Source of the DNA: Patescibacteria group bacterium
GTDB lineage: Bacteria > Patescibacteriota > Minisyncoccia > Phycocordibacterales > WO2-35-19
Assembly: GCA_038064735.1 (NCBI GenBank)
Contig: JBBTSI010000010.1
Span: forward strand, 1-63,131
Reading direction: 5' to 3'
DNA length: 63,131 bases
Shown here: one piece after another, positions 6,606-63,097 of the stretch
Layout of the letters: each line of letters opens with the position of its first letter
Numbering within the stretch: position 1 is the first letter of the stretch
Program-made: the position numbers and the translations under genes
Notes under the pieces: model-generated
Seen by the model: only the letters and a program-made list of their open reading frames with translations
Databases searched by the model: none
What the model was told of the DNA's origin: nothing

Positions 6606-8570
6606 ATGCAAGAACAACGCAGAAATAAAATCAGAAGTTTTCATGCTCCGGAAAAACCGAGAGTCTTAAAACCTACTACTTCAACTCATACTTCTCACAC
6701 AAGCAATCATCTTTCAAGAAATGCAGGTGGGCACACAAGAAATACTATGAGTAACGCAGCTACAACTCCGAGAAGAAGCTCTCGTCCTTTCTCTTCACGC
6801 AACAAACGTTTCGTAAATCCAAATGCCAGATTCGGTCTTGAAGAAAATCACAAACCAGATGCCAATTCCAAATCAGCTCCAGAAACCCTTTCTCTACCAA
6901 AAGTCGGAGAAAATGTAAGGATTATCCCTCTTGGTGGTGCTGAAGAAATCGGCCGAAACATGACCGCGATAGAAATTGGTGATGATATCATCGTCGTAGA
7001 TGCCGGTTTTCAATTCAAAGACGAAGACTCTCCAGGTATTGATTATATTTTACCAAACACCAAATATTTGGAAGAAAGGAAAGATAAAATCCGCGGTATC
7101 TTCATCACTCACGGCCACCTCGACCATATCGGTGGTATCCCTTACATAGTAGACCGTATCGGCTACCCGACTATTTACGCGAGACAATTCAGCGCCATCA
7201 TGATCCAAAAGCGCCAAGAAGAATTTACCAGTCTAAAACCGCTAGATGTAAAAGTTATTGATGGTGACGAAACTATTACCTGTGGCAAAATGAAAATTAC
7301 CACCTTCCCTATCTCCCACACCATTCCTGATTCCATGGGTCTCATTATTCATACTCCTTATGGCAATATCGTATTCATTGAAGACGTGCGTGTAGACAAC
7401 GTCAAAGGTGTACCGACTGCAGAAGAAGATAGACAATACGAAAGATTCAAAGGTATGAACGTCTTGCTCTTGACTATGGACTCGACTTCAATCGAGAAAC
7501 CGGGTTTTTCTCTCGCGGAAAATGTAGTGACTGAAAACATAGAAAAATTTATCAAAGGTTCTCATGGCCGTCTCATTATCGGCACCTTCGCTTCTCAAGT
7601 CGAACGTATCATCGCCATTATCAAAACCGCCGAAAAATACAACAAAAAAATAGCTGTGGAAGGCAGAAGTATGAAAACCAACTTGGAAATTATCAAACTC
7701 CTGAAACTTTCCGACATCACCAACATTATCCCGGTAGAAGAAATTGAAAATTATCCGCCAGACAGGATAGTCATGCTCGTGACCGGCTCTCAAGGTGAAG
7801 AATTCGCCGCTCTCATGCGCATCGCCAACAAAACTCACAAATACGTCAAACTCCGCTCGAGCGATACCATCTTGCTTTCATCATCAATCATCCCAACTAA
7901 CTACAAATCAATCGTGAAGCTCAAAGATAACCTCTACCGTTCGGAAGCCAAAGTCATCACTTATCTTGATTCCGACATTCATGCTTCAGGACACGGCAAC
8001 AGAGAAGAATTAAAATGGATTCACCAGAGAATCAATTACAAATTCTTCATGCCGGTGCACGGCAACCATTATATGCTTTGCCAGCACGCCGAACTTGCTC
8101 AGTCCATTGGTGCTCCAAGAGAAAATGTCGTCATTCCTGATAACGGTTCCATTGTAGAAATTTACGACAAAGGCACCAAAATAAAAATTCTCAAAGAAAA
8201 AGCTCCATCTGACCTCGTTATGGTTGACGGTTTCGCGGTCGGCGATGTTCAAGAAGTAGTCATCAGGGACAGGAAAATGCTCTCAGACGACGGCATGTTC
8301 GTGGTCGTCGCCATTGTTGATCTCAAGACCGGTAAATTACGCAAATCGCCAGATCTCATCTCTCGTGGTTTCGTTTACTTGCGTGAATCTCAAGAACTCC
8401 TCGGCCACACCCGCCTCATCATCAAAAAATCTATTGAAGAGAGTACTCGTGGTACCAACCCTATCAACTTTGATCTCATCAAGAGCAACGTAGCCGACGC
8501 GGTCGCCCGCTTCCTCTTCCAAAAAACCGCCAAACACCCTATCGTTATTCCGGTAATTTTGGGGGTTTAA
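6606..8570 (+). CDS. rnj: ribonuclease J with about 100-aa low-complexity N-terminal extension
   Basis: Metallo-beta-lactamase motif ITHGHLDHIGG, beta-CASP region and C-terminal domain; overall RNase J layout. Confidence 0.9.
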   Translation: MQEQRRNKIRSFHAPEKPRVLKPTTSTHTSHTSNHLSRNAGGHTRNTMSNAATTPRRSSRPFSSRNKRFVNPNARFGLEENHKPDANSKSAPETLSLPKVGENVRIIPLGGAEEIGRNMTAIEIGDDIIVVDAGFQFKDEDSPGIDYILPNTKYLEERKDKIRGIFITHGHLDHIGGIPYIVDRIGYPTIYARQFSAIMIQKRQEEFTSLKPLDVKVIDGDETITCGKMKITTFPISHTIPDSMGLIIHTPYGNIVFIEDVRVDNVKGVPTAEEDRQYERFKGMNVLLLTMDSTSIEKPGFSLAENVVTENIEKFIKGSHGRLIIGTFASQVERIIAIIKTAEKYNKKIAVEGRSMKTNLEIIKLLKLSDITNIIPVEEIENYPPDRIVMLVTGSQGEEFAALMRIANKTHKYVKLRSSDTILLSSSIIPTNYKSIVKLKDNLYRSEAKVITYLDSDIHASGHGNREELKWIHQRINYKFFMPVHGNHYMLCQHAELAQSIGAPRENVVIPDNGSIVEIYDKGTKIKILKEKAPSDLVMVDGFAVGDVQEVVIRDRKMLSDDGMFVVVAIVDLKTGKLRKSPDLISRGFVYLRESQELLGHTRLIIKKSIEESTRGTNPINFDLIKSNVADAVARFLFQKTAKHPIVIPVILGV

Positions 8571-8602
8571 CGAAAAATAAAAGGCTTAAATACAGCCATT
8601 TT

Positions 8603-8638
8603 AGAACGGCTCAACGACAACTCTCGTTGAGCCGTTCT
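8603..8638 (+). terminator. terminator hairpin, conserved-stem family (GAACGGCTCAACGA)
   Basis: AGAACGGCTCAACGA-caactc-TCGTTGAGCCGTTCT followed by a T-rich tract, 33 nt after the rnj stop. Confidence 0.7.
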
Positions 8639-8661
8639 CTATTTTCAGGTAGAATAGAGGG

Positions 8662-27523: not shown

Positions 27524-27833
27524 TGCGGGGTAGAGTAATAGTAACTCGCGAGGCTCAATAATGGTGGGCCCATGGTTGAGTAATCAATCATTGCAAATTT
27601 GCCAAATTCGGAGAACTCCTCTCTGTTTCATCAACAGAAAGACAATTCCGAGCTAAATTCAGTTTAATTTTTTAAATTCAACTGATAAATGTGTAGAGAC
27701 TAGATGGCGAAATTCCAAGTTTTTAATTTGGAAGATGGTATAGTCCAGACCCCAAACTCCGCCAAGCGGAGATGTTGAAAAACATAGTGGTAAGCATAAC
27801 CTTGAAATTTTGGTGCAAATCCAAACTCCGCAA
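27524..27833 (+). tRNA. intron-containing tRNA(CAU): exons 27524-27555 and 27795-27833
   Basis: Joined exons give TGCGGGG-TA-GAGT-AATAGTA-ACTC-G-CGAGG-CTCATAA-CCTTG-AAAT-TTTGG-TGCAAAT-CCAAA-CTCCGCA-A (71 nt). The D loop lacks GG and the T loop is TGC instead of TTC. Confidence 0.7.
27556..27794 (+). ncRNA. group I self-splicing intron (Azoarcus-like, IC3-type core)
   Basis: CAAATTCGGAGAACTCC...GACAATTCCGAGCTAAA (P4/P5/P6), GTGTAGAGACTAGATGGCGAAA (J6/7-P7-P3), P8 TTCCAA/TTGGAA, AAGATGGTATAGTCC (P7 3' strand), P9 hairpins CTCCG-ccaa-CGGAG and ATGTT-gaaa-AACAT, terminal G at 27794. Confidence 0.85.
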
Positions 27834-58675: not shown

Positions 58676-59242
58676 TTAAATTTTAGATTGGAGAATTATT
58701 GGCAGAACCTCTAAAAATAAGTCCTTACTAAAATTCAGAATCCAAATAAGAATAGATTTTATTATTTCCCAATTTTTGTTAGGTTTATTCAATTCATCTC
58801 TAAGTTCTCTAAGTTTTGTTTTTTGTTCTTCATCATCAGCCTTATCAATCAGATTATTTATTGTATAGTCTATATTTATAGAAAGTTCATTCTGATTTTT
58901 ATTAAAGATTGCAATATTTGGTGAAGATTGATTATTAATGCTACCAAACCCATACTCTTCTTCTAATCTTCCTATTGTTCTACCAATTTGTGGCCTTACT
59001 GAGGCACTATAATAGAAAGGTTCTACTGTGTGGTTATGGGTCGGGACAATAGCTTCGTGAGTAACTTTATTCCTAGAATAATCCGTACCTGTTACATCCG
59101 ACAATTCATCAATTGATGAATTAAATTGCTTTACAATAAAAGAAGAAATGTAAGAATCTTGGTTAGGTAAAGGTATTTGACTAAGTAGACCCTTAATATC
59201 CCCATATATTGATTTGATTTTTGTAAGTTGTATTTCTGCCAT
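58676..59242 (-). CDS. hypothetical protein, third gene of the MazG / DUF2075-S24 operon
   Basis: 188 aa from the ATG at 59242 (track start 59326 overlaps the upstream gene); 25-nt gap to the upstream stop; C-terminal amphipathic/hydrophobic helix IIKSILIWILNFSKDLFLEVLPIIL. Confidence 0.5.
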   Translation of the reverse strand: MAEIQLTKIKSIYGDIKGLLSQIPLPNQDSYISSFIVKQFNSSIDELSDVTGTDYSRNKVTHEAIVPTHNHTVEPFYYSASVRPQIGRTIGRLEEEYGFGSINNQSSPNIAIFNKNQNELSINIDYTINNLIDKADDEEQKTKLRELRDELNKPNKNWEIIKSILIWILNFSKDLFLEVLPIILQSKI

Positions 59243-59267
59243 TATACGATTTTTTAAATTTATAAAA

Positions 59268-61616
59268 CTATTTTTTACTAGAATCATTATCCAATACTTC
59301 CTGTACAACTCCCTGAACACTATCACCTTCTTCTGGTATTATTGGTTTGTGATTTTTGTTTGTACTTTTGGGAAGCAGGATTCTACGTCCTTCTTTTTTG
59401 TCATACATTTTTATAGTGACATTATCACCAAGGAGAGCAACTACTTTATCACCTGTTTCTGCTTTTAATTGTTGGCGGCAAAGAACAAGATCGCCATCAT
59501 TAATACCAGCAAGGTTCATTGAGTCACCAACTGCCCGTAAAACATAATATGAATAACCTTTCTTAATTTTACTTTTTTCTACATCAATATACTCTTCAAT
59601 ATTTTCTTGTCCCAAAAAAGGATTACCACATGGAGCCATACCAAGCAAAGGTAGACTAATCATTTCTGGTGTATATGGAGAAACAATTTCTTTTGCGATA
59701 AATTTATCGATGGAAACCATGTTTTCAATTCTGCTTTTGAAAAATTTCTCTGTTTCTTTATCTACAAAATAAACATAGCAACCTTTCATGCCTCTAGTCA
59801 TCAAGACGCGATAAATATTTTTTACATGTTTTTCAAAATTTTCTCTATTTCTTTTTAACATAGGGTCGGCTGTTGCTAAAATATTGCCTTCAAGCCGATT
59901 TGTTTTTGGATTATAAATAAGATCATCCCCAACAATAACGCCAATATAATCAAATTCAAAACCTTGTGCAGTATAAATACATCCAACTTGTTTTATTCCT
60001 TCATTTTTATATGCCCATTCATACCATTTAGCATATCCCTTGGGTGGTTTAATTTTGTCGTGTGTTTCCCAAGGCATAGAAAAGTCACCTATAACAACAT
60101 CCCTAACAAGTTCTCCATTTGAATCTAATTTTTGAGACCAAGGCCAACAAAAACCAGCTACTAAACGTGCAAAATTTCCTTTTCCGGGATTTTCTTTTTT
60201 TCCTTGTTCTTCTTTTTTAAGAAGCGCATCATAAAGTTCCTTTGGAGAATTGAAAATTTTAAAATCAAATTTTTCTGTCTCTGAAAGAATTTTTTCTTCT
60301 TGATCATAACCGAGTGTCGATTCTAACCATTTTAAATAATCGTTGGATCCCATACAACGAAATTGAGTTTCTAGAGTTATTTCATCAATTGAACATCCAA
60401 ACATTTTAGCTGTTTCTCTAATAAGATCTGCACTTCCAATTTCCAATGATCGTATATTTTGCATATCATCAATAAAAAATACAGAAGTTTTTGCAAAACG
60501 AATAATCTGATCAATCTGTGGCATATCTGTTCTATCATCTTTTTTTGTAAATTGATTATTACTAGTTTTTCCAATCCTATGGGCTTCATCAATTAAAACA
60601 ATATCTCCTTCATTCTCTTTGACTTTTGATGGAATAAATCTATTCAGATTAGAAATTAGTTTTTCTGCTTCTTTTCCAACCAAATTAGTTAGCCCACTTA
60701 CAAATGGCTTAGATTTACAAGCATAAAAAGCTTTTAATCTTCTTTTTGCTGATTCTGCTAAAATATTTAAAGCTATAACAGATTTTCCTGTTCCAGGACC
60801 ACCATGTACGATAATAACTGCTTTTTTATCTCCTTTTTGGGTTTTATTTATTTTTGACCAAATTATATTTTTAGCAACCAACTGTTCATTTAATAAAGAA
60901 AAAACTGCTTCATTAGAAATTATTTTCGATACACTTTCCAAAAGTTTTTTTGAAGGAGTTATCGGGCTTTGCATAAAACGATTAAAGACTTCAAAGCCAT
61001 CACCTTTAGCCAATAATTTTTTTATTTTTTCAGCTAAAAATACAGTATCATTTTCAGTATATATTGGATAATCTTTTATTAATTCCTCATAAATTGGAGC
61101 AAAAAGACCCTCATTGCCCGTCTTTAGATAATTGTGACAATATGCGCAACTAAATAGGAATAAGGGTTCTTTATTTTCAAATTCCGCAACAAAACTTTTT
61201 AAGTATCCCTCGTAACCCTTAATTTGTTGTGATGGGTGAGAAACAATTCTTGTGTTTCCACCAGTGTAAGTTTCAACAAAATTTCCTTCATCTTCAAGAT
61301 CTTTCACACTTGTCCATTGTTTTAATTCAATAAGAACTATATTATCAATATTTTTCTCATCTTTTCCAAAAAGAAGACAATCTATTCTGCCAGTATTATA
61401 TGGAACTTCATATTCAAGAGCTATATTTATATTTTCAATATCGGCTATTTCAATTAAATCTTTGATTTTTGGCAAAGAATTTCGCCAAGAATTTATTTCT
61501 GGTTGACCTGGTTCTCTTCCAAAAGAAGACTTAAAGGAATCTACCATTAATCCTGTTAGTTTATTTTCTCTAACATTATTTATAAAAGTAGTCCCGTCAG
61601 ATTTATAGATCAGCAT
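59268..61616 (-). CDS. DUF2075 (Schlafen-type) ATPase/helicase with N-terminal PD-(D/E)xK-like module, fused to a C-terminal LexA/UmuD-type S24 peptidase domain
   Basis: GRIDCLLFG...IVLIELKQW; Walker A HGGPGTGKS; Walker B VLIDEAHRI; CIYTAQGFEFDYIGVIVG. C-terminus: MAPCGNPF (UmuD-like Cys-Gly site, codons at 59625-59630), GDSM (Ser at 59520-59522), VTIKMY (Lys). Confidence 0.75.
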   Translation of the reverse strand: MLIYKSDGTTFINNVRENKLTGLMVDSFKSSFGREPGQPEINSWRNSLPKIKDLIEIADIENINIALEYEVPYNTGRIDCLLFGKDEKNIDNIVLIELKQWTSVKDLEDEGNFVETYTGGNTRIVSHPSQQIKGYEGYLKSFVAEFENKEPLFLFSCAYCHNYLKTGNEGLFAPIYEELIKDYPIYTENDTVFLAEKIKKLLAKGDGFEVFNRFMQSPITPSKKLLESVSKIISNEAVFSLLNEQLVAKNIIWSKINKTQKGDKKAVIIVHGGPGTGKSVIALNILAESAKRRLKAFYACKSKPFVSGLTNLVGKEAEKLISNLNRFIPSKVKENEGDIVLIDEAHRIGKTSNNQFTKKDDRTDMPQIDQIIRFAKTSVFFIDDMQNIRSLEIGSADLIRETAKMFGCSIDEITLETQFRCMGSNDYLKWLESTLGYDQEEKILSETEKFDFKIFNSPKELYDALLKKEEQGKKENPGKGNFARLVAGFCWPWSQKLDSNGELVRDVVIGDFSMPWETHDKIKPPKGYAKWYEWAYKNEGIKQVGCIYTAQGFEFDYIGVIVGDDLIYNPKTNRLEGNILATADPMLKRNRENFEKHVKNIYRVLMTRGMKGCYVYFVDKETEKFFKSRIENMVSIDKFIAKEIVSPYTPEMISLPLLGMAPCGNPFLGQENIEEYIDVEKSKIKKGYSYYVLRAVGDSMNLAGINDGDLVLCRQQLKAETGDKVVALLGDNVTIKMYDKKEGRRILLPKSTNKNHKPIIPEEGDSVQGVVQEVLDNDSSKK

Positions 61617-61621
61617 ATGAT

Positions 61622-61978
61622 TTACAACTTATTATATTTCGTATGTTTACCTTTAGCTTTTGCGACTGGATATTTCTTTTTGTTGCCCTCTATCTTTTTG
61701 TTCGAAGCTTTTACTATGTCTATGCCAATATCATGACTCATTATCAAAACCCAATTAAATACATCAGCCAGTTCTTCTCCTATATCGTCTTTGTTTGATT
61801 TAACATATTTTTCTATCTCCTCTTTAGACTTCCACTGAAAATGCTCTAGAACTTCTGCCGCCTCAAGAGTAAGAGAAAGTGCAAGGTCTTTAGGATTGTG
61901 AAATTGCTTCCAATCTCGAGCATTTCTAAAATCAATCAAGCTCTTTGTTATCTTTTTTATAGGGTCCATAATACTCAA
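61622..61978 (-). CDS. MazG-like nucleoside triphosphate pyrophosphohydrolase (small all-alpha type)
   Basis: FRNARDWKQFHNPKDLALSLTLEAAEVLEHFQW...IGEELADVF (EExxE...EExxD). TTG start at 61978 has GGAGG 6 nt upstream; alternative ATG at 61969. Stop is 5 nt before the next gene. Confidence 0.75.
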   Translation of the reverse strand: MSIMDPIKKITKSLIDFRNARDWKQFHNPKDLALSLTLEAAEVLEHFQWKSKEEIEKYVKSNKDDIGEELADVFNWVLIMSHDIGIDIVKASNKKIEGNKKKYPVAKAKGKHTKYNKL

Positions 61979-62003
61979 ACTATACCTCCAAAACCTTCAT
62001 TTT

Positions 62004-62087
62004 TCAATCCCGTTAGAGATAATCTGCCTAGGGCAGGTGCCGAAACATAAGTTTCGGATCTTTAACGGGATCAATCCCGTTAAAGAT
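62004..62087 (-). mobile_element. divergent copy E7 of the inverted-repeat element (AGAGAT/AAAGAT arms), flanked by ATTGA, plus an extra third arm
   Basis: Plus strand: TCAAT-CCCGTTAGAGAT...ATCTTTAACGGGA-TCAAT-CCCGTTAAAGAT. Internal hairpins CTGCC/GGCAG and CCGAAAC-ataa-GTTTCGG. Confidence 0.6.
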
Positions 62088-62130
62088 AAAGAAAAGAACA
62101 CCTAAACGACCCCAGTCGTTTAGGTGTTCT
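62085..62130 (-). terminator. strong Rho-independent terminator after the Fic gene (stem related to the GAACGGCTCAACGAC family)
   Basis: AGAACACCTAAACGAC-ccca-GTCGTTTAGGTGTTCT; on the minus strand it is followed by TTTCTTTATC. Confidence 0.75.
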
Positions 62131-62212
62131 CCTATTCCCCCCTCTTTTCTATTTCCCCTCTCTTCCCTTTTCCTTTTCCTCCCAATCATTCTCTCTTTTT
62201 GGAGAATGATTT

Positions 62213-63097
62213 TCATCCAACAAAATTTTCACTTATTTTCCAAATACCTTTCTCAAGGAAAGCTTCAATAGTTTGTCTAGTTGCTTTATTAATAAGATTA
62301 GAATGAGAGAGTTTATTTTCCTTTGCGTATTCTCTTAAAGTAACAATCTTTCCTCCTTCCAAATATGCAAGCCGTTTATGATAACTGTTGGTAAGTGCTC
62401 TTCCTACTATTTCCTCCATAATAGCCGTCCTCCCTTTTTCATCAAATTCCTTAAAAGCTTCGTAATATTTGCTTCTATCAATGAATTTAATATTAATAGG
62501 AACAAAACCTTCTCGTATTAATAAGTAGTTATTAATAACTCTCCCAATACGGCCGTTCCCATCTATAAATGGATGGGTATATTCAAAAGATAAATGCAAT
62601 CTTGCAATTCGTTTAATAATATTTTCATGGCTACTTGCGTTGTAATCTCCAAGCATTTTTCCTAATCTCTCTAAAATTTCTTTCGGAGCAGGGGCAATAT
62701 AACTGCCAACTCTGACAAATTCATTATCTTGCCTGAACCTCCCGGCAACATCATCACGAATATTTGAAATCAACATTTTATGAAGCGACAAAATAACATC
62801 GAGATTGAGTTCTTGTTCTTTAGCCTTTTTGTCTATATAAGAAACGACTCGGGCAAGATTTTTGGCTTCAAAAATTTCTCTATCGGTAATATACCTATCC
62901 AAATCTATTTGAAGAAGTATTTTTTCCGTTTCTTCTAGAGTAAGTGTGCTATTTTCAATAGCATTAGAGTTGTATACTTGTTCAGCGACTTCTGCCTCAC
63001 TTATGAGTTTAATGAGCGCCTCTTTCCCTGGTAACGTTTTATAGTACCTTTCTCTTAATGAATTGATTTTATTGAACACGGCGGATGTTTTAGCCAT
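62213..63097 (-). CDS. fic: Fic/DOC family protein (class II, intramolecular inhibitory motif)
   Basis: Active site HPFIDGNGRIGR; N-terminal SNAIEN fits the [ST]xxxE[GN] inhibitory helix motif. Confidence 0.85.
   Translation of the reverse strand: MAKTSAVFNKINSLRERYYKTLPGKEALIKLISEAEVAEQVYNSNAIENSTLTLEETEKILLQIDLDRYITDREIFEAKNLARVVSYIDKKAKEQELNLDVILSLHKMLISNIRDDVAGRFRQDNEFVRVGSYIAPAPKEILERLGKMLGDYNASSHENIIKRIARLHLSFEYTHPFIDGNGRIGRVINNYLLIREGFVPINIKFIDRSKYYEAFKEFDEKGRTAIMEEIVGRALTNSYHKRLAYLEGGKIVTLREYAKENKLSHSNLINKATRQTIEAFLEKGIWKISENFVG

Follow-up and report, generated by a model that had tools for sequence, protein, structure and literature searches.

A MazG-like pyrophosphatase gene paired with a nuclease-like DUF2075 helicase gene carrying a LexA-type S24 domain: a candidate two-gene defense module in Patescibacteria

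Three minus-strand genes on a contig of a Patescibacteria group bacterium (GenBank assembly GCA_038064735.1, contig JBBTSI010000010.1) raise the question of what a self-cleaving domain of the LexA type would do at the end of a nuclease-helicase, and which of the genes beside it belong to the same system. The stretch analyzed here, called the window throughout, comprises 63,131 nucleotides (nt) of this contig. Gene 1 encodes a MazG-like nucleoside triphosphate (NTP) pyrophosphohydrolase, gene 2 a 782-amino-acid (aa) fusion of a nuclease-like module, a DUF2075 helicase, and an S24 domain, and gene 3 an all-helical protein of 188 aa. A preliminary description of this DNA had seen in them a three-gene operon and a candidate undescribed defense or damage-triggered system. 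The coordinates of the open reading frames (ORFs) confirm its account of the layout, with gaps of 5 nt between genes 1 and 2 and 25 nt between genes 2 and 3, and the many homologues found for each of the three ORFs indicate that they are real genes. Our answer, to which we assign a probability of about one half, is that genes 1 and 2 form a horizontally mobile two-gene module directed against phages and other mobile genetic elements, in which RecA filaments on single-stranded DNA (RecA-ssDNA) would trigger cleavage of the S24 domain, and that gene 3 is a separate passenger. The domain identities, the intact catalytic residues, the conserved pair, the recurrent fusion, and the defense context were established directly.

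A conserved pair of pyrophosphatase and nuclease-helicase genes

The conserved unit at this locus is a pair, not a trio. Of 53 bacterial and archaeal genome loci, each representing a species, 46 had a MazG-like gene with the relative of gene 2. Clustering of the flanking ORFs, carried out on 51 loci, recovered it in 44, in 42 of which it immediately precedes the helicase gene on the same strand; over these 51 loci, which span many phyla, it was the only widely conserved neighbor of that gene. The pairing was also present in five loci obtained from an exact-protein look-up or a viral scan (L062, L063, L070, L071, and L072), and it persists for plasmid-borne DUF2075 genes just 27-34% identical to gene 2 (L079 and L080), the order being DUF3578/McrB_N, pyrophosphohydrolase, DUF2075 on a Priestia plasmid and pyrophosphohydrolase, HNH, helicase on pBMB400 of B. 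thuringiensis. Locus L089 (368-2765) combines a MazG-like gene 68% identical to gene 1 with a following GIY-YIG::DUF2075::S24 protein, in which the helicase is 27% and the S24 domain 74% identical to those of gene 2 and the nuclease domain is of a different kind. Since the pairing persists across all of these loci, the link between MazG and a nuclease-DUF2075 protein, with S24 as an optional part, is robust and modular. The MazG-like gene was displaced or absent beside the DUF2075 gene in L007, L012, L016, L039, and L078.

The linkage of the MazG-like and helicase genes therefore stands (42/51) from the three-gene operon first described, and the membership of gene 3 falls. Neither tblastn nor a hidden Markov model (HMM) of the gene 3 family detected it in the 53 genome loci or in 5 further loci with gene 2 relatives, so that the trio as a neighborhood was found in none of the 58; even the closest S24-fused relatives, L001 and L042, are devoid of it.

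The family to which gene 2 belongs is large. Its core of about 625 aa returned 2737 matches below 1e-10, and an exhaustive search of representatives yielded 587 clusters at 50% identity with E<=1e-30, spanning bacteria, archaea, plasmids, and one contig binned as a giant virus. Phage records and one viral contig provided only distant matches to gene 2, at 27-32% identity.

Gene 1 matched the Pfam profile PF12643 (MazG-like) at 2.2e-16 (60.3 bits against a cutoff of 27), and its closest relatives in PDB are the pyrophosphatase 4qgp (2e-18) and, over nearly the full length, mammalian DCTPP1/RS21-C6 (1.7e-15). Residues R18, W20, Q22, H24, E36, E39, E66, and D69 are conserved in 50 MazG-like neighbors of DUF2075 genes, which likewise keep a C-terminal YP...KY motif; we take this residue set to be the DCTPP1 signature. 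DCTPP1 prefers dCTP and 5-modified dCTPs, and its relatives are house-cleaning enzymes. The profile match and the ligands E36, E39, E66, and D69 uphold the initial assignment of gene 1 to the MazG type with metal-ligand motifs. The start codon placed at TTG 61978 is not upheld; because the homologues are 115-116 aa long, translation most likely begins at ATG 61969, giving a protein of 115 aa.

In gene 2, the helicase is the best-defined part. The profile PF09848 (SLFN-g3_helicase, formerly DUF2075) matched residues 265-619 at 1.5e-83 (281.5 bits against a cutoff of 24) and was covered end to end (positions 1-354 of 354). Translation places the Walker A sequence GGPGTGKS at residues 272-279 and the DEAH box at 343-346. 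Both motifs are invariant in 60 homologues, as are E68, D79, and E97-x-K99 in the N-terminal module, the latter three staying invariant down to 28% identity. An AlphaFold2 model built from the 60-sequence alignment (mean predicted local distance difference test score [pLDDT], 74) consists of an N-terminal alpha/beta module, a helicase with two lobes, and a C-terminal domain rich in beta structure, before which residues 634-649 form a disordered linker. In Foldseek searches, the top match of the helicase was human SLFN11 (7zel, 6e-11), with SLFN14 also found, followed by the superfamily 1B (SF1B) helicases RecD2, Dna2, Dda, and Upf1.

The N-terminal module is assigned to the PD-(D/E)xK-like nucleases mainly because E68, D79, and E97-x-K99 are invariant, and its predicted strands in the model are compatible with that fold. 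NERD was matched by 6 of 16 diverse family members, with a best E value of 6.8e-5 that is still below threshold, and a profile of the domain compared with PDB sequences gave only spurious matches to designed armadillo repeats. Among the domains originally read in gene 2, DUF2075 is thus firm, and the nuclease-like N terminus remains a candidate marked by sub-threshold profiles and invariant residues.

A set of cysteines and a histidine lies in and after the nuclease-like core. C157, C160, and H161 are invariant and C80 is nearly so among the 60 close homologues (about 61134-61379 in the window); in a more divergent alignment of 16 sequences, the cysteines vary more, and H161 is almost but not fully invariant. 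By analogy with Dna2/AddB-type nucleases, C80, C157, C160, and H161 may form a metal or Fe-S site.

The LexA-type domain of gene 2

The C-terminal domain of gene 2 is a complete LexA/UmuD-like S24 domain, as had been proposed. PF00717 (Peptidase_S24) matched residues 656-768 at 1.8e-20 (73 bits), and translation confirmed Ser699 within GDSM and Lys736 within TIKMY, while the putative scissile bond Cys663-Gly664 aligns with Ala84-Gly85 in the LexA of E. coli and with Cys-Gly in that of Nitrospirota. The NCBIfam models for LexA and UmuD match only the C terminus of gene 2; the match to TIGR00498 (lexA, 6e-22) spans profile positions 79-199 only and, with a score of 78, stays below the cutoff of 111. 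The winged-helix DNA-binding domain that forms the N terminus of LexA is not present, and the nuclease-helicase stands in its place. LexA chains in PDB match the tail at about 1e-12. By fold, the tail corresponds to LexA C-terminal domains (target-normalized template modeling [TM] score of about 0.8, root mean square deviation of 2.6 Å), including LexA bound to RecA filaments (8trg, 8gms, and 8s7g among the fold matches).

This domain is a facultative but recurrent add-on of a highly conserved two-gene module. An S24 tail of 140-190 aa occurs in 28 of the 120 closest homologues of gene 2, with the Ser/Lys dyad intact in all 28. Among the top 150 representatives at 50% identity, 14 have such a tail, and some of these have cores only 34-41% identical to that of gene 2. 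Two types can be distinguished: type A, in the clade of the window, has the Cys-Gly site, whereas type B is marked by an insertion and by Ala-Ala-Gly, or in some members Ala-Ala-Thr, at the site. Gene 2 is 86% identical to an unfused protein of 632 aa, yet only 54-60% identical to type B fusions, and fused and unfused proteins are interleaved in a neighbor-joining tree of the core, which, crude as this tree is, indicates repeated gain or loss of S24. When the S24 segment alone was used as the query, fragments of fusions ranked first; next came genuine LexA proteins, with LexA_DNA_bind and S24 domains, that are 50-57% identical to the segment and have the same Cys-Gly site.

Capture of the domain from a stand-alone UmuD of the candidate phyla radiation (CPR, Patescibacteria) was also considered and rejected. 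The 126-aa S24 protein P0249 of locus L073 (5821-6381) is a decayed fusion, because a 26-aa relic of a DUF2075 C terminus lies immediately upstream of it. Downstream of this gene, L073 has HNH_5, DUF4238, and Y-family polymerase genes.

Defense context, gene 3, and layout of the locus

The setting of the locus resembles a defense island, as the preliminary description had suggested. Upstream of the module in the window is a SoFic-like Fic gene, with a terminator-like hairpin between the two. This Fic gene is 83% identical to the one at the same position in L003, a Paceibacterota metagenome-assembled genome (MAG), where the same Fic-MazG-DUF2075 order is found with an unfused helicase and a following RadC-like JAB gene. 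In L003, L004, and L005, which belong to the clade nearest the window, the unfused DUF2075 gene is followed at a distance of about 70 nt by this JAB gene (about 7957-8659), which occupies the place of S24 and gene 3.

In other loci, the pair stands beside SIR2, PIN-Phd and MNT-HepT toxin-antitoxin pairs, SIR2-HerA, HNH_2 with a second DUF2075 gene, restriction-modification (R-M) genes, and McrB_N(-HNH) type IV-like enzymes. McrB_N (DUF3578) directly precedes the pair in Desulfopila inferna (L071, 4698-7878), in a protein that also has mREase_IV and HNH matches, and on the Priestia plasmid (L079, 2548-5866); in a Woesearchaeota MAG (L049, 8876-9817), the DUF2075 gene has a McrB_N homologue about 1 kb downstream, and an HNH gene adjoins the pair in L080, L063, and L019. 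The McrB_N neighbors suggest a link between the pair and modification-dependent restriction. Distant family members are themselves fused to TIR_2, PNP_UDP_1, N6_Mtase, Type_ISP_C, or PIF1 (proteins P0425, P0415, P0388, P0427, and P0473). Taken together, context and fusions point to a role in immunity.

Gene 3 belongs to a family of proteins about 185 aa long that form roughly 100 clusters. No match to it was found in Pfam, NCBIfam, PADLOC, or PHROGs, and its all-helical AlphaFold2 model, although confident (pLDDT 82), retrieved nothing below E=3 from PDB with Foldseek. The family shares a strongly conserved hydrophobic C-terminal helix (WxxIKxxLIWILNFSKDLFLEVLPIILQKK), a feature already remarked on at first. 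Of 32 further gene 3 loci surveyed, only L089 has a DUF2075 gene, and there the gene 3 homologue lies about 2.2 kb downstream of the MazG/DUF2075::S24 pair with a HATPase_c_3 gene between. Elsewhere, the homologues follow varied genes, mostly of defense, at 4-150 nt: hsdM within type I R-M operons, type III res, Mrr, SIR2_2, and genes for a JAB protein, a HATPase_c_3 protein, or an integrase. A variable partner gene usually comes next; these partners are mutually unrelated and include HEPN-like and PD-(D/E)xK proteins. We regard gene 3 as a promiscuous passenger or accessory of defense operons and not as a defining member of the module; the 58 loci with gene 2 relatives and the 32 gene 3 loci led us to reject it as a system member. 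We likewise rejected the idea that gene 3 has lost a partner gene on its downstream side, the usual neighbors there (HEPN_AbiU2-like and others) being mutually unrelated and leaving no trace in the window. Gene 3 and its variable partner may constitute an undescribed two-gene cassette associated with defense. The loci of the gene 3 family are L054-L061, L065-L069, and L081-L112.

Gene 3 is probably cotranscribed with genes 1 and 2; no terminator-like site lies between the three genes. The promoter listed in Table 1 is a match to the consensus only, and such sites are no commoner in the region than in shuffled sequence. Inspection of the sequence revealed a short hairpin and T-run after the stop codon of gene 3 as well. 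The spacer between the Fic and MazG-like genes also contains smaller inverted repeats at 62020-62090, for example taacgggattgatcccgtta. The locus has a guanine-plus-cytosine (GC) content of 30.9% against 36.6% for the window and is among its most AT-rich 3.3-kb stretches. Fic, GIY-YIG, and the low GC content agree with the accessory stretch initially described; the nucleotidyltransferase placed there is only a weak match. The copy of a miniature inverted-repeat transposable element reported for this stretch could not be verified, and the window holds no second copy of the Fic-MazG spacer or of its 19-bp hairpin.

Table 1. Coordinates of genes, domains, residues, and candidate signals at the locus (window positions)
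Feature	Position	Strand	Basis or remark
Gene 1, MazG-like DCTPP1/RS21-C6-type NTP pyrophosphohydrolase	61622..61969 (ORF to TTG 61978)	-	Pfam, PDB, conserved ligands
Gene 2, 782-aa nuclease-like::DUF2075 helicase::S24 fusion	59268..61616	-	ORF, profile, homologue, and model evidence
N-terminal PD-(D/E)xK-like (NERD-like) module, residues 1-250	60867..61616	-	Invariant residues, weak profile matches
D79	61380-61382	-	
E97-L-K99	61320-61328	-	
SLFN-g3/DUF2075 SF1B helicase core, residues 265-632	59721..60824	-	Pfam, Foldseek
Walker A	60780-60803	-	
DEAH	60579-60590	-	
Low-confidence, probably flexible linker, residues 633-651	59664..59720	-	pLDDT <50 for 634-649
LexA-type S24 autoprotease domain, residues 652-775	59292..59663	-	Pfam, NCBIfam, PDB, Foldseek
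Putative scissile Cys663-Gly664	59625-59630	-	
Ser699	59520-59522	-	
Lys736	59409-59411	-	
Gene 3, 188-aa all-helical protein (length from ATG)	58676..59242	-	Homologue family, own model
Best sigma-70-like promoter match, TTGAAA-17-TATAGT	61979..62007	-	Directly upstream of MazG-like gene
Perfect 19-bp-stem hairpin, then T-run	62092..62133	-	Between Fic and MazG-like gene
SoFic-like Fic gene, upstream neighbor	62213..63097	-	Pfam Fic 3e-22; PADLOC PDC-S04 3.7e-33, SoFic 3e-28

Apart from this locus, the window contains an Rfam group I intron match on the plus strand (27546-27771; 66.5 bits against a gathering score of 50), which sits between protein-coding ORFs and near several tRNA genes.

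Possible mechanism, alternatives, and known systems

How such a module might work we infer, in every biochemical and regulatory step, from sequence. Gene 2 would be the effector, a PD-(D/E)xK-like nuclease joined to a Schlafen-type SF1B DUF2075 motor that, by analogy with the nuclease-helicase Nhi discussed below, could unwind and degrade foreign DNA or replication intermediates. Its DCTPP1-like partner would act on the (d)NTP pool, hydrolyzing dCTP or 5-modified dCTP. Such hydrolysis could starve phages that use modified cytosine, or it could keep modified nucleotides out of host DNA, and a host whose DNA is free of modified dCTP would not be targeted. Removal of modified dCTP by the partner is suggested because the pair is recurrently associated with modified-cytosine readers. 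The LexA-derived S24 domain, carried on a flexible linker, most likely couples the effector to RecA-ssDNA. Filaments arising from DNA damage or phage replication would stimulate self-cleavage at Cys663-Gly664, which would free a 663-residue enzyme from the dimerizing S24 tail and change its activity or localization. Gene 3 would merely share the transcript. A more specific version, in which RecA-ssDNA from phage replication cleaves and thereby activates the effector directly after translation, without a transcriptional step and as a widespread module, is a tentative possibility.

Several observations weigh against the proposed two-gene defense module with its RecA-dependent switch. The core of gene 2 is 55-86% identical across phyla, which is unusually conserved for an immune gene. 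The matches of its N terminus to NERD and PDDEXK_9 are sub-threshold (E 0.002-0.01) and give the nuclease weak support, and the PADLOC matches of the protein to PDC-S41, Nhi, and AbiO are all partial. As for the switch, most family members are devoid of S24, which implies that it is not essential to the module, and some type B fusions have Ala-Thr in place of Ala-Gly at the aligned site. The window contains no recA or lexA gene. Finally, a frameshift just before Walker A, the mark of a pseudogene or else an assembly error, splits the closest genome-resolved fusion with S24, which comes from a Doudnabacteria MAG (L042, 6001-8329).

An alternative would be a role not in immunity but in genome maintenance coupled to the SOS response, in which MazG would clean the pool of noncanonical dNTPs, the nuclease-helicase would process stalled or damaged forks, and S24 would sense RecA filaments as UmuD does. 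The very high conservation of the core across phyla, the LexA/UmuD-like nature of the S24 domain, the house-cleaning role of DCTPP1 relatives, and the resemblance in fold to Dna2 and SLFN11, which act at replication forks, all fit it. We nevertheless consider this role unlikely, given that the distribution is patchy and looks horizontally transferred, that GC is low, that the module is found on plasmids, that toxin-antitoxin, R-M, SIR2-HerA, and SoFic-like genes and not repair genes are its neighbors, and that some relatives carry fused TIR, PNP, methylase, and Type ISP restriction modules. The same toxin-antitoxin neighbors, together with the tight coupling of the two genes and the leading position of the small one, an order typical of antitoxin-toxin pairs, could instead indicate abortive infection by a self-toxic nuclease-helicase with the MazG-like protein as antidote or regulator, which might, for instance, break down a nucleotide that activates the effector. 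This arrangement is still less probable, as the MazG-like catalytic residues are conserved as in a genuine dNTP pyrophosphatase and as the DUF2075 gene occurs in five loci with the MazG-like gene displaced or absent.

With respect to the S24 domain, permanent dimerization or targeting to RecA filaments would be an alternative to self-cleavage, the nuclease-helicase being brought to RecA-coated ssDNA and never released. LexA C-terminal domains do dimerize and dock on RecA filaments, as in the structures found by fold, and the Ala-Thr of several type B fusions at the aligned cleavage position would accord with such a function. Nevertheless, the dyad kept in 28/28 fusions and the Cys-Gly site, which the window clade shares unchanged with the genuine LexA proteins closest to it, argue for selection on catalysis, and we regard a noncleaving domain as improbable. 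An obligate three-gene system, with the gene 3 product as a functional partner of genes 1 and 2, is very unlikely. The 25-nt gap, the common strand, the lack of a terminator-like site between genes 2 and 3, and the proximity of gene 3 to a MazG and GIY-YIG::DUF2075::S24 pair in L089 speak for it. Against these stand the count of 0/58 for the gene 3 HMM in loci with gene 2 relatives, the presence of a DUF2075 gene in that single one of the 32 further gene 3 loci, and the otherwise usual position of gene 3 behind hsdM, type III res, Mrr, SIR2, JAB, or integrase genes.

If the proposed module is real, the Nhi-type nuclease-helicase defenses would gain a two-component version linked to the nucleotide pool, and a function would be given to the very conserved DUF2075 family. 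A LexA-type self-cleaving domain would be shown to serve as a portable switch on an enzyme and not a repressor. Under the more specific version with direct activation by RecA-ssDNA, the SOS signal would be connected to immunity in a new manner, in a prokaryotic parallel to the activation of human SLFN11 by ssDNA and replication stress. The link to a DCTPP1-like enzyme, sometimes with McrB_N/HNH readers nearby, provides a testable idea on defense against cytosine-modified phage DNA.

Each part of the module has relatives among known systems. Gene 1 resembles DCTPP1/RS21-C6 in its RDWxQFH motif, its ExxE...ExxD ligands, the C-terminal YP...KY, and the match in PDB; it differs in being a prokaryotic protein of 115 aa coupled in an operon to a helicase-nuclease. 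The S24 domain shares with LexA, UmuD, and lambda CI the fold (TM 0.8), the Ser-Lys dyad, and the Cys/Ala-Gly cleavage loop. Whereas LexA and CI carry a helix-turn-helix DNA-binding N terminus and UmuD a short arm, gene 2 carries a nuclease-helicase of 650 residues; consequently, cleavage would regulate an enzyme directly and not transcription or DNA polymerase V. With SLFN11 and the group III Schlafens, gene 2 shares the helicase domain, its top structural match and a prokaryotic counterpart of that of human SLFN11. As an effector responsive to ssDNA and replication stress, SLFN11 may also parallel the putative RecA-ssDNA-sensing S24 module. The Schlafen RNase (AlbA_2) domain is not part of gene 2; published work on bacterial Schlafen defense deals with that RNase domain, not with the helicase family of gene 2, and makes no mention of S24 or MazG (PMC13056530). 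The McaZI group, DUF2075 NTPases near modification-dependent restriction enzymes, is comparable in the McrB_N(-HNH) or HNH genes near the pair and differs in that the window itself has no modified-DNA reader; MazG and S24 components were not described for this group by Lutz et al. in 2019 (PMC6765204).

Among defense profiles, no named system matches the whole architecture, as the preliminary description had supposed. The best PADLOC match of gene 2 was PDC-S41 (PDLC05014, 1e-18), an untested candidate of that database for which the literature searched yielded no describing paper. It covers the N-terminal module and Walker A of gene 2, and its profile length of 657 is near that of unfused members; since only profile positions 5-284 of 657 align, it represents a related but distinct family. 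The Nhi profile PDLC02372 (3.6e-9) matched residues 241-393 against profile positions 183-306 of 470, and both this match and that to AbiO are confined to the P-loop region. Membership in Nhi, AbiO, or PDC-S41 was ruled out on these partial matches. A description of the pair or of the fusion was not found in the literature searched, which left most subscription journals aside, and the two-gene module is apparently both widespread and undescribed.

The closest functional comparison is with Nhi of S. epidermidis (SERP2475) and the Nhi-like proteins, single-gene nuclease and DUF2075 proteins that are experimentally defensive (bioRxiv 10.1101/776245; 10.1101/2022.05.11.491447). Nhi needs both its nuclease and its helicase activities and limits the accumulation of phage DNA. 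Gene 2 has in common with Nhi and the Nhi-like proteins (Millman et al. 2022) the order of nuclease and then DUF2075/SF1B helicase, the location in defense islands, and a presumed target in phage DNA or replication intermediates. In contrast, the conserved DCTPP1-like partner gene of the gene 2 family and the C-terminal LexA-type S24 domain of gene 2 have not been described for Nhi. By this analogy, the module would be an Nhi-like nuclease-helicase defense to which a partner gene and, at this locus, a putative self-cleaving S24 domain have been added.

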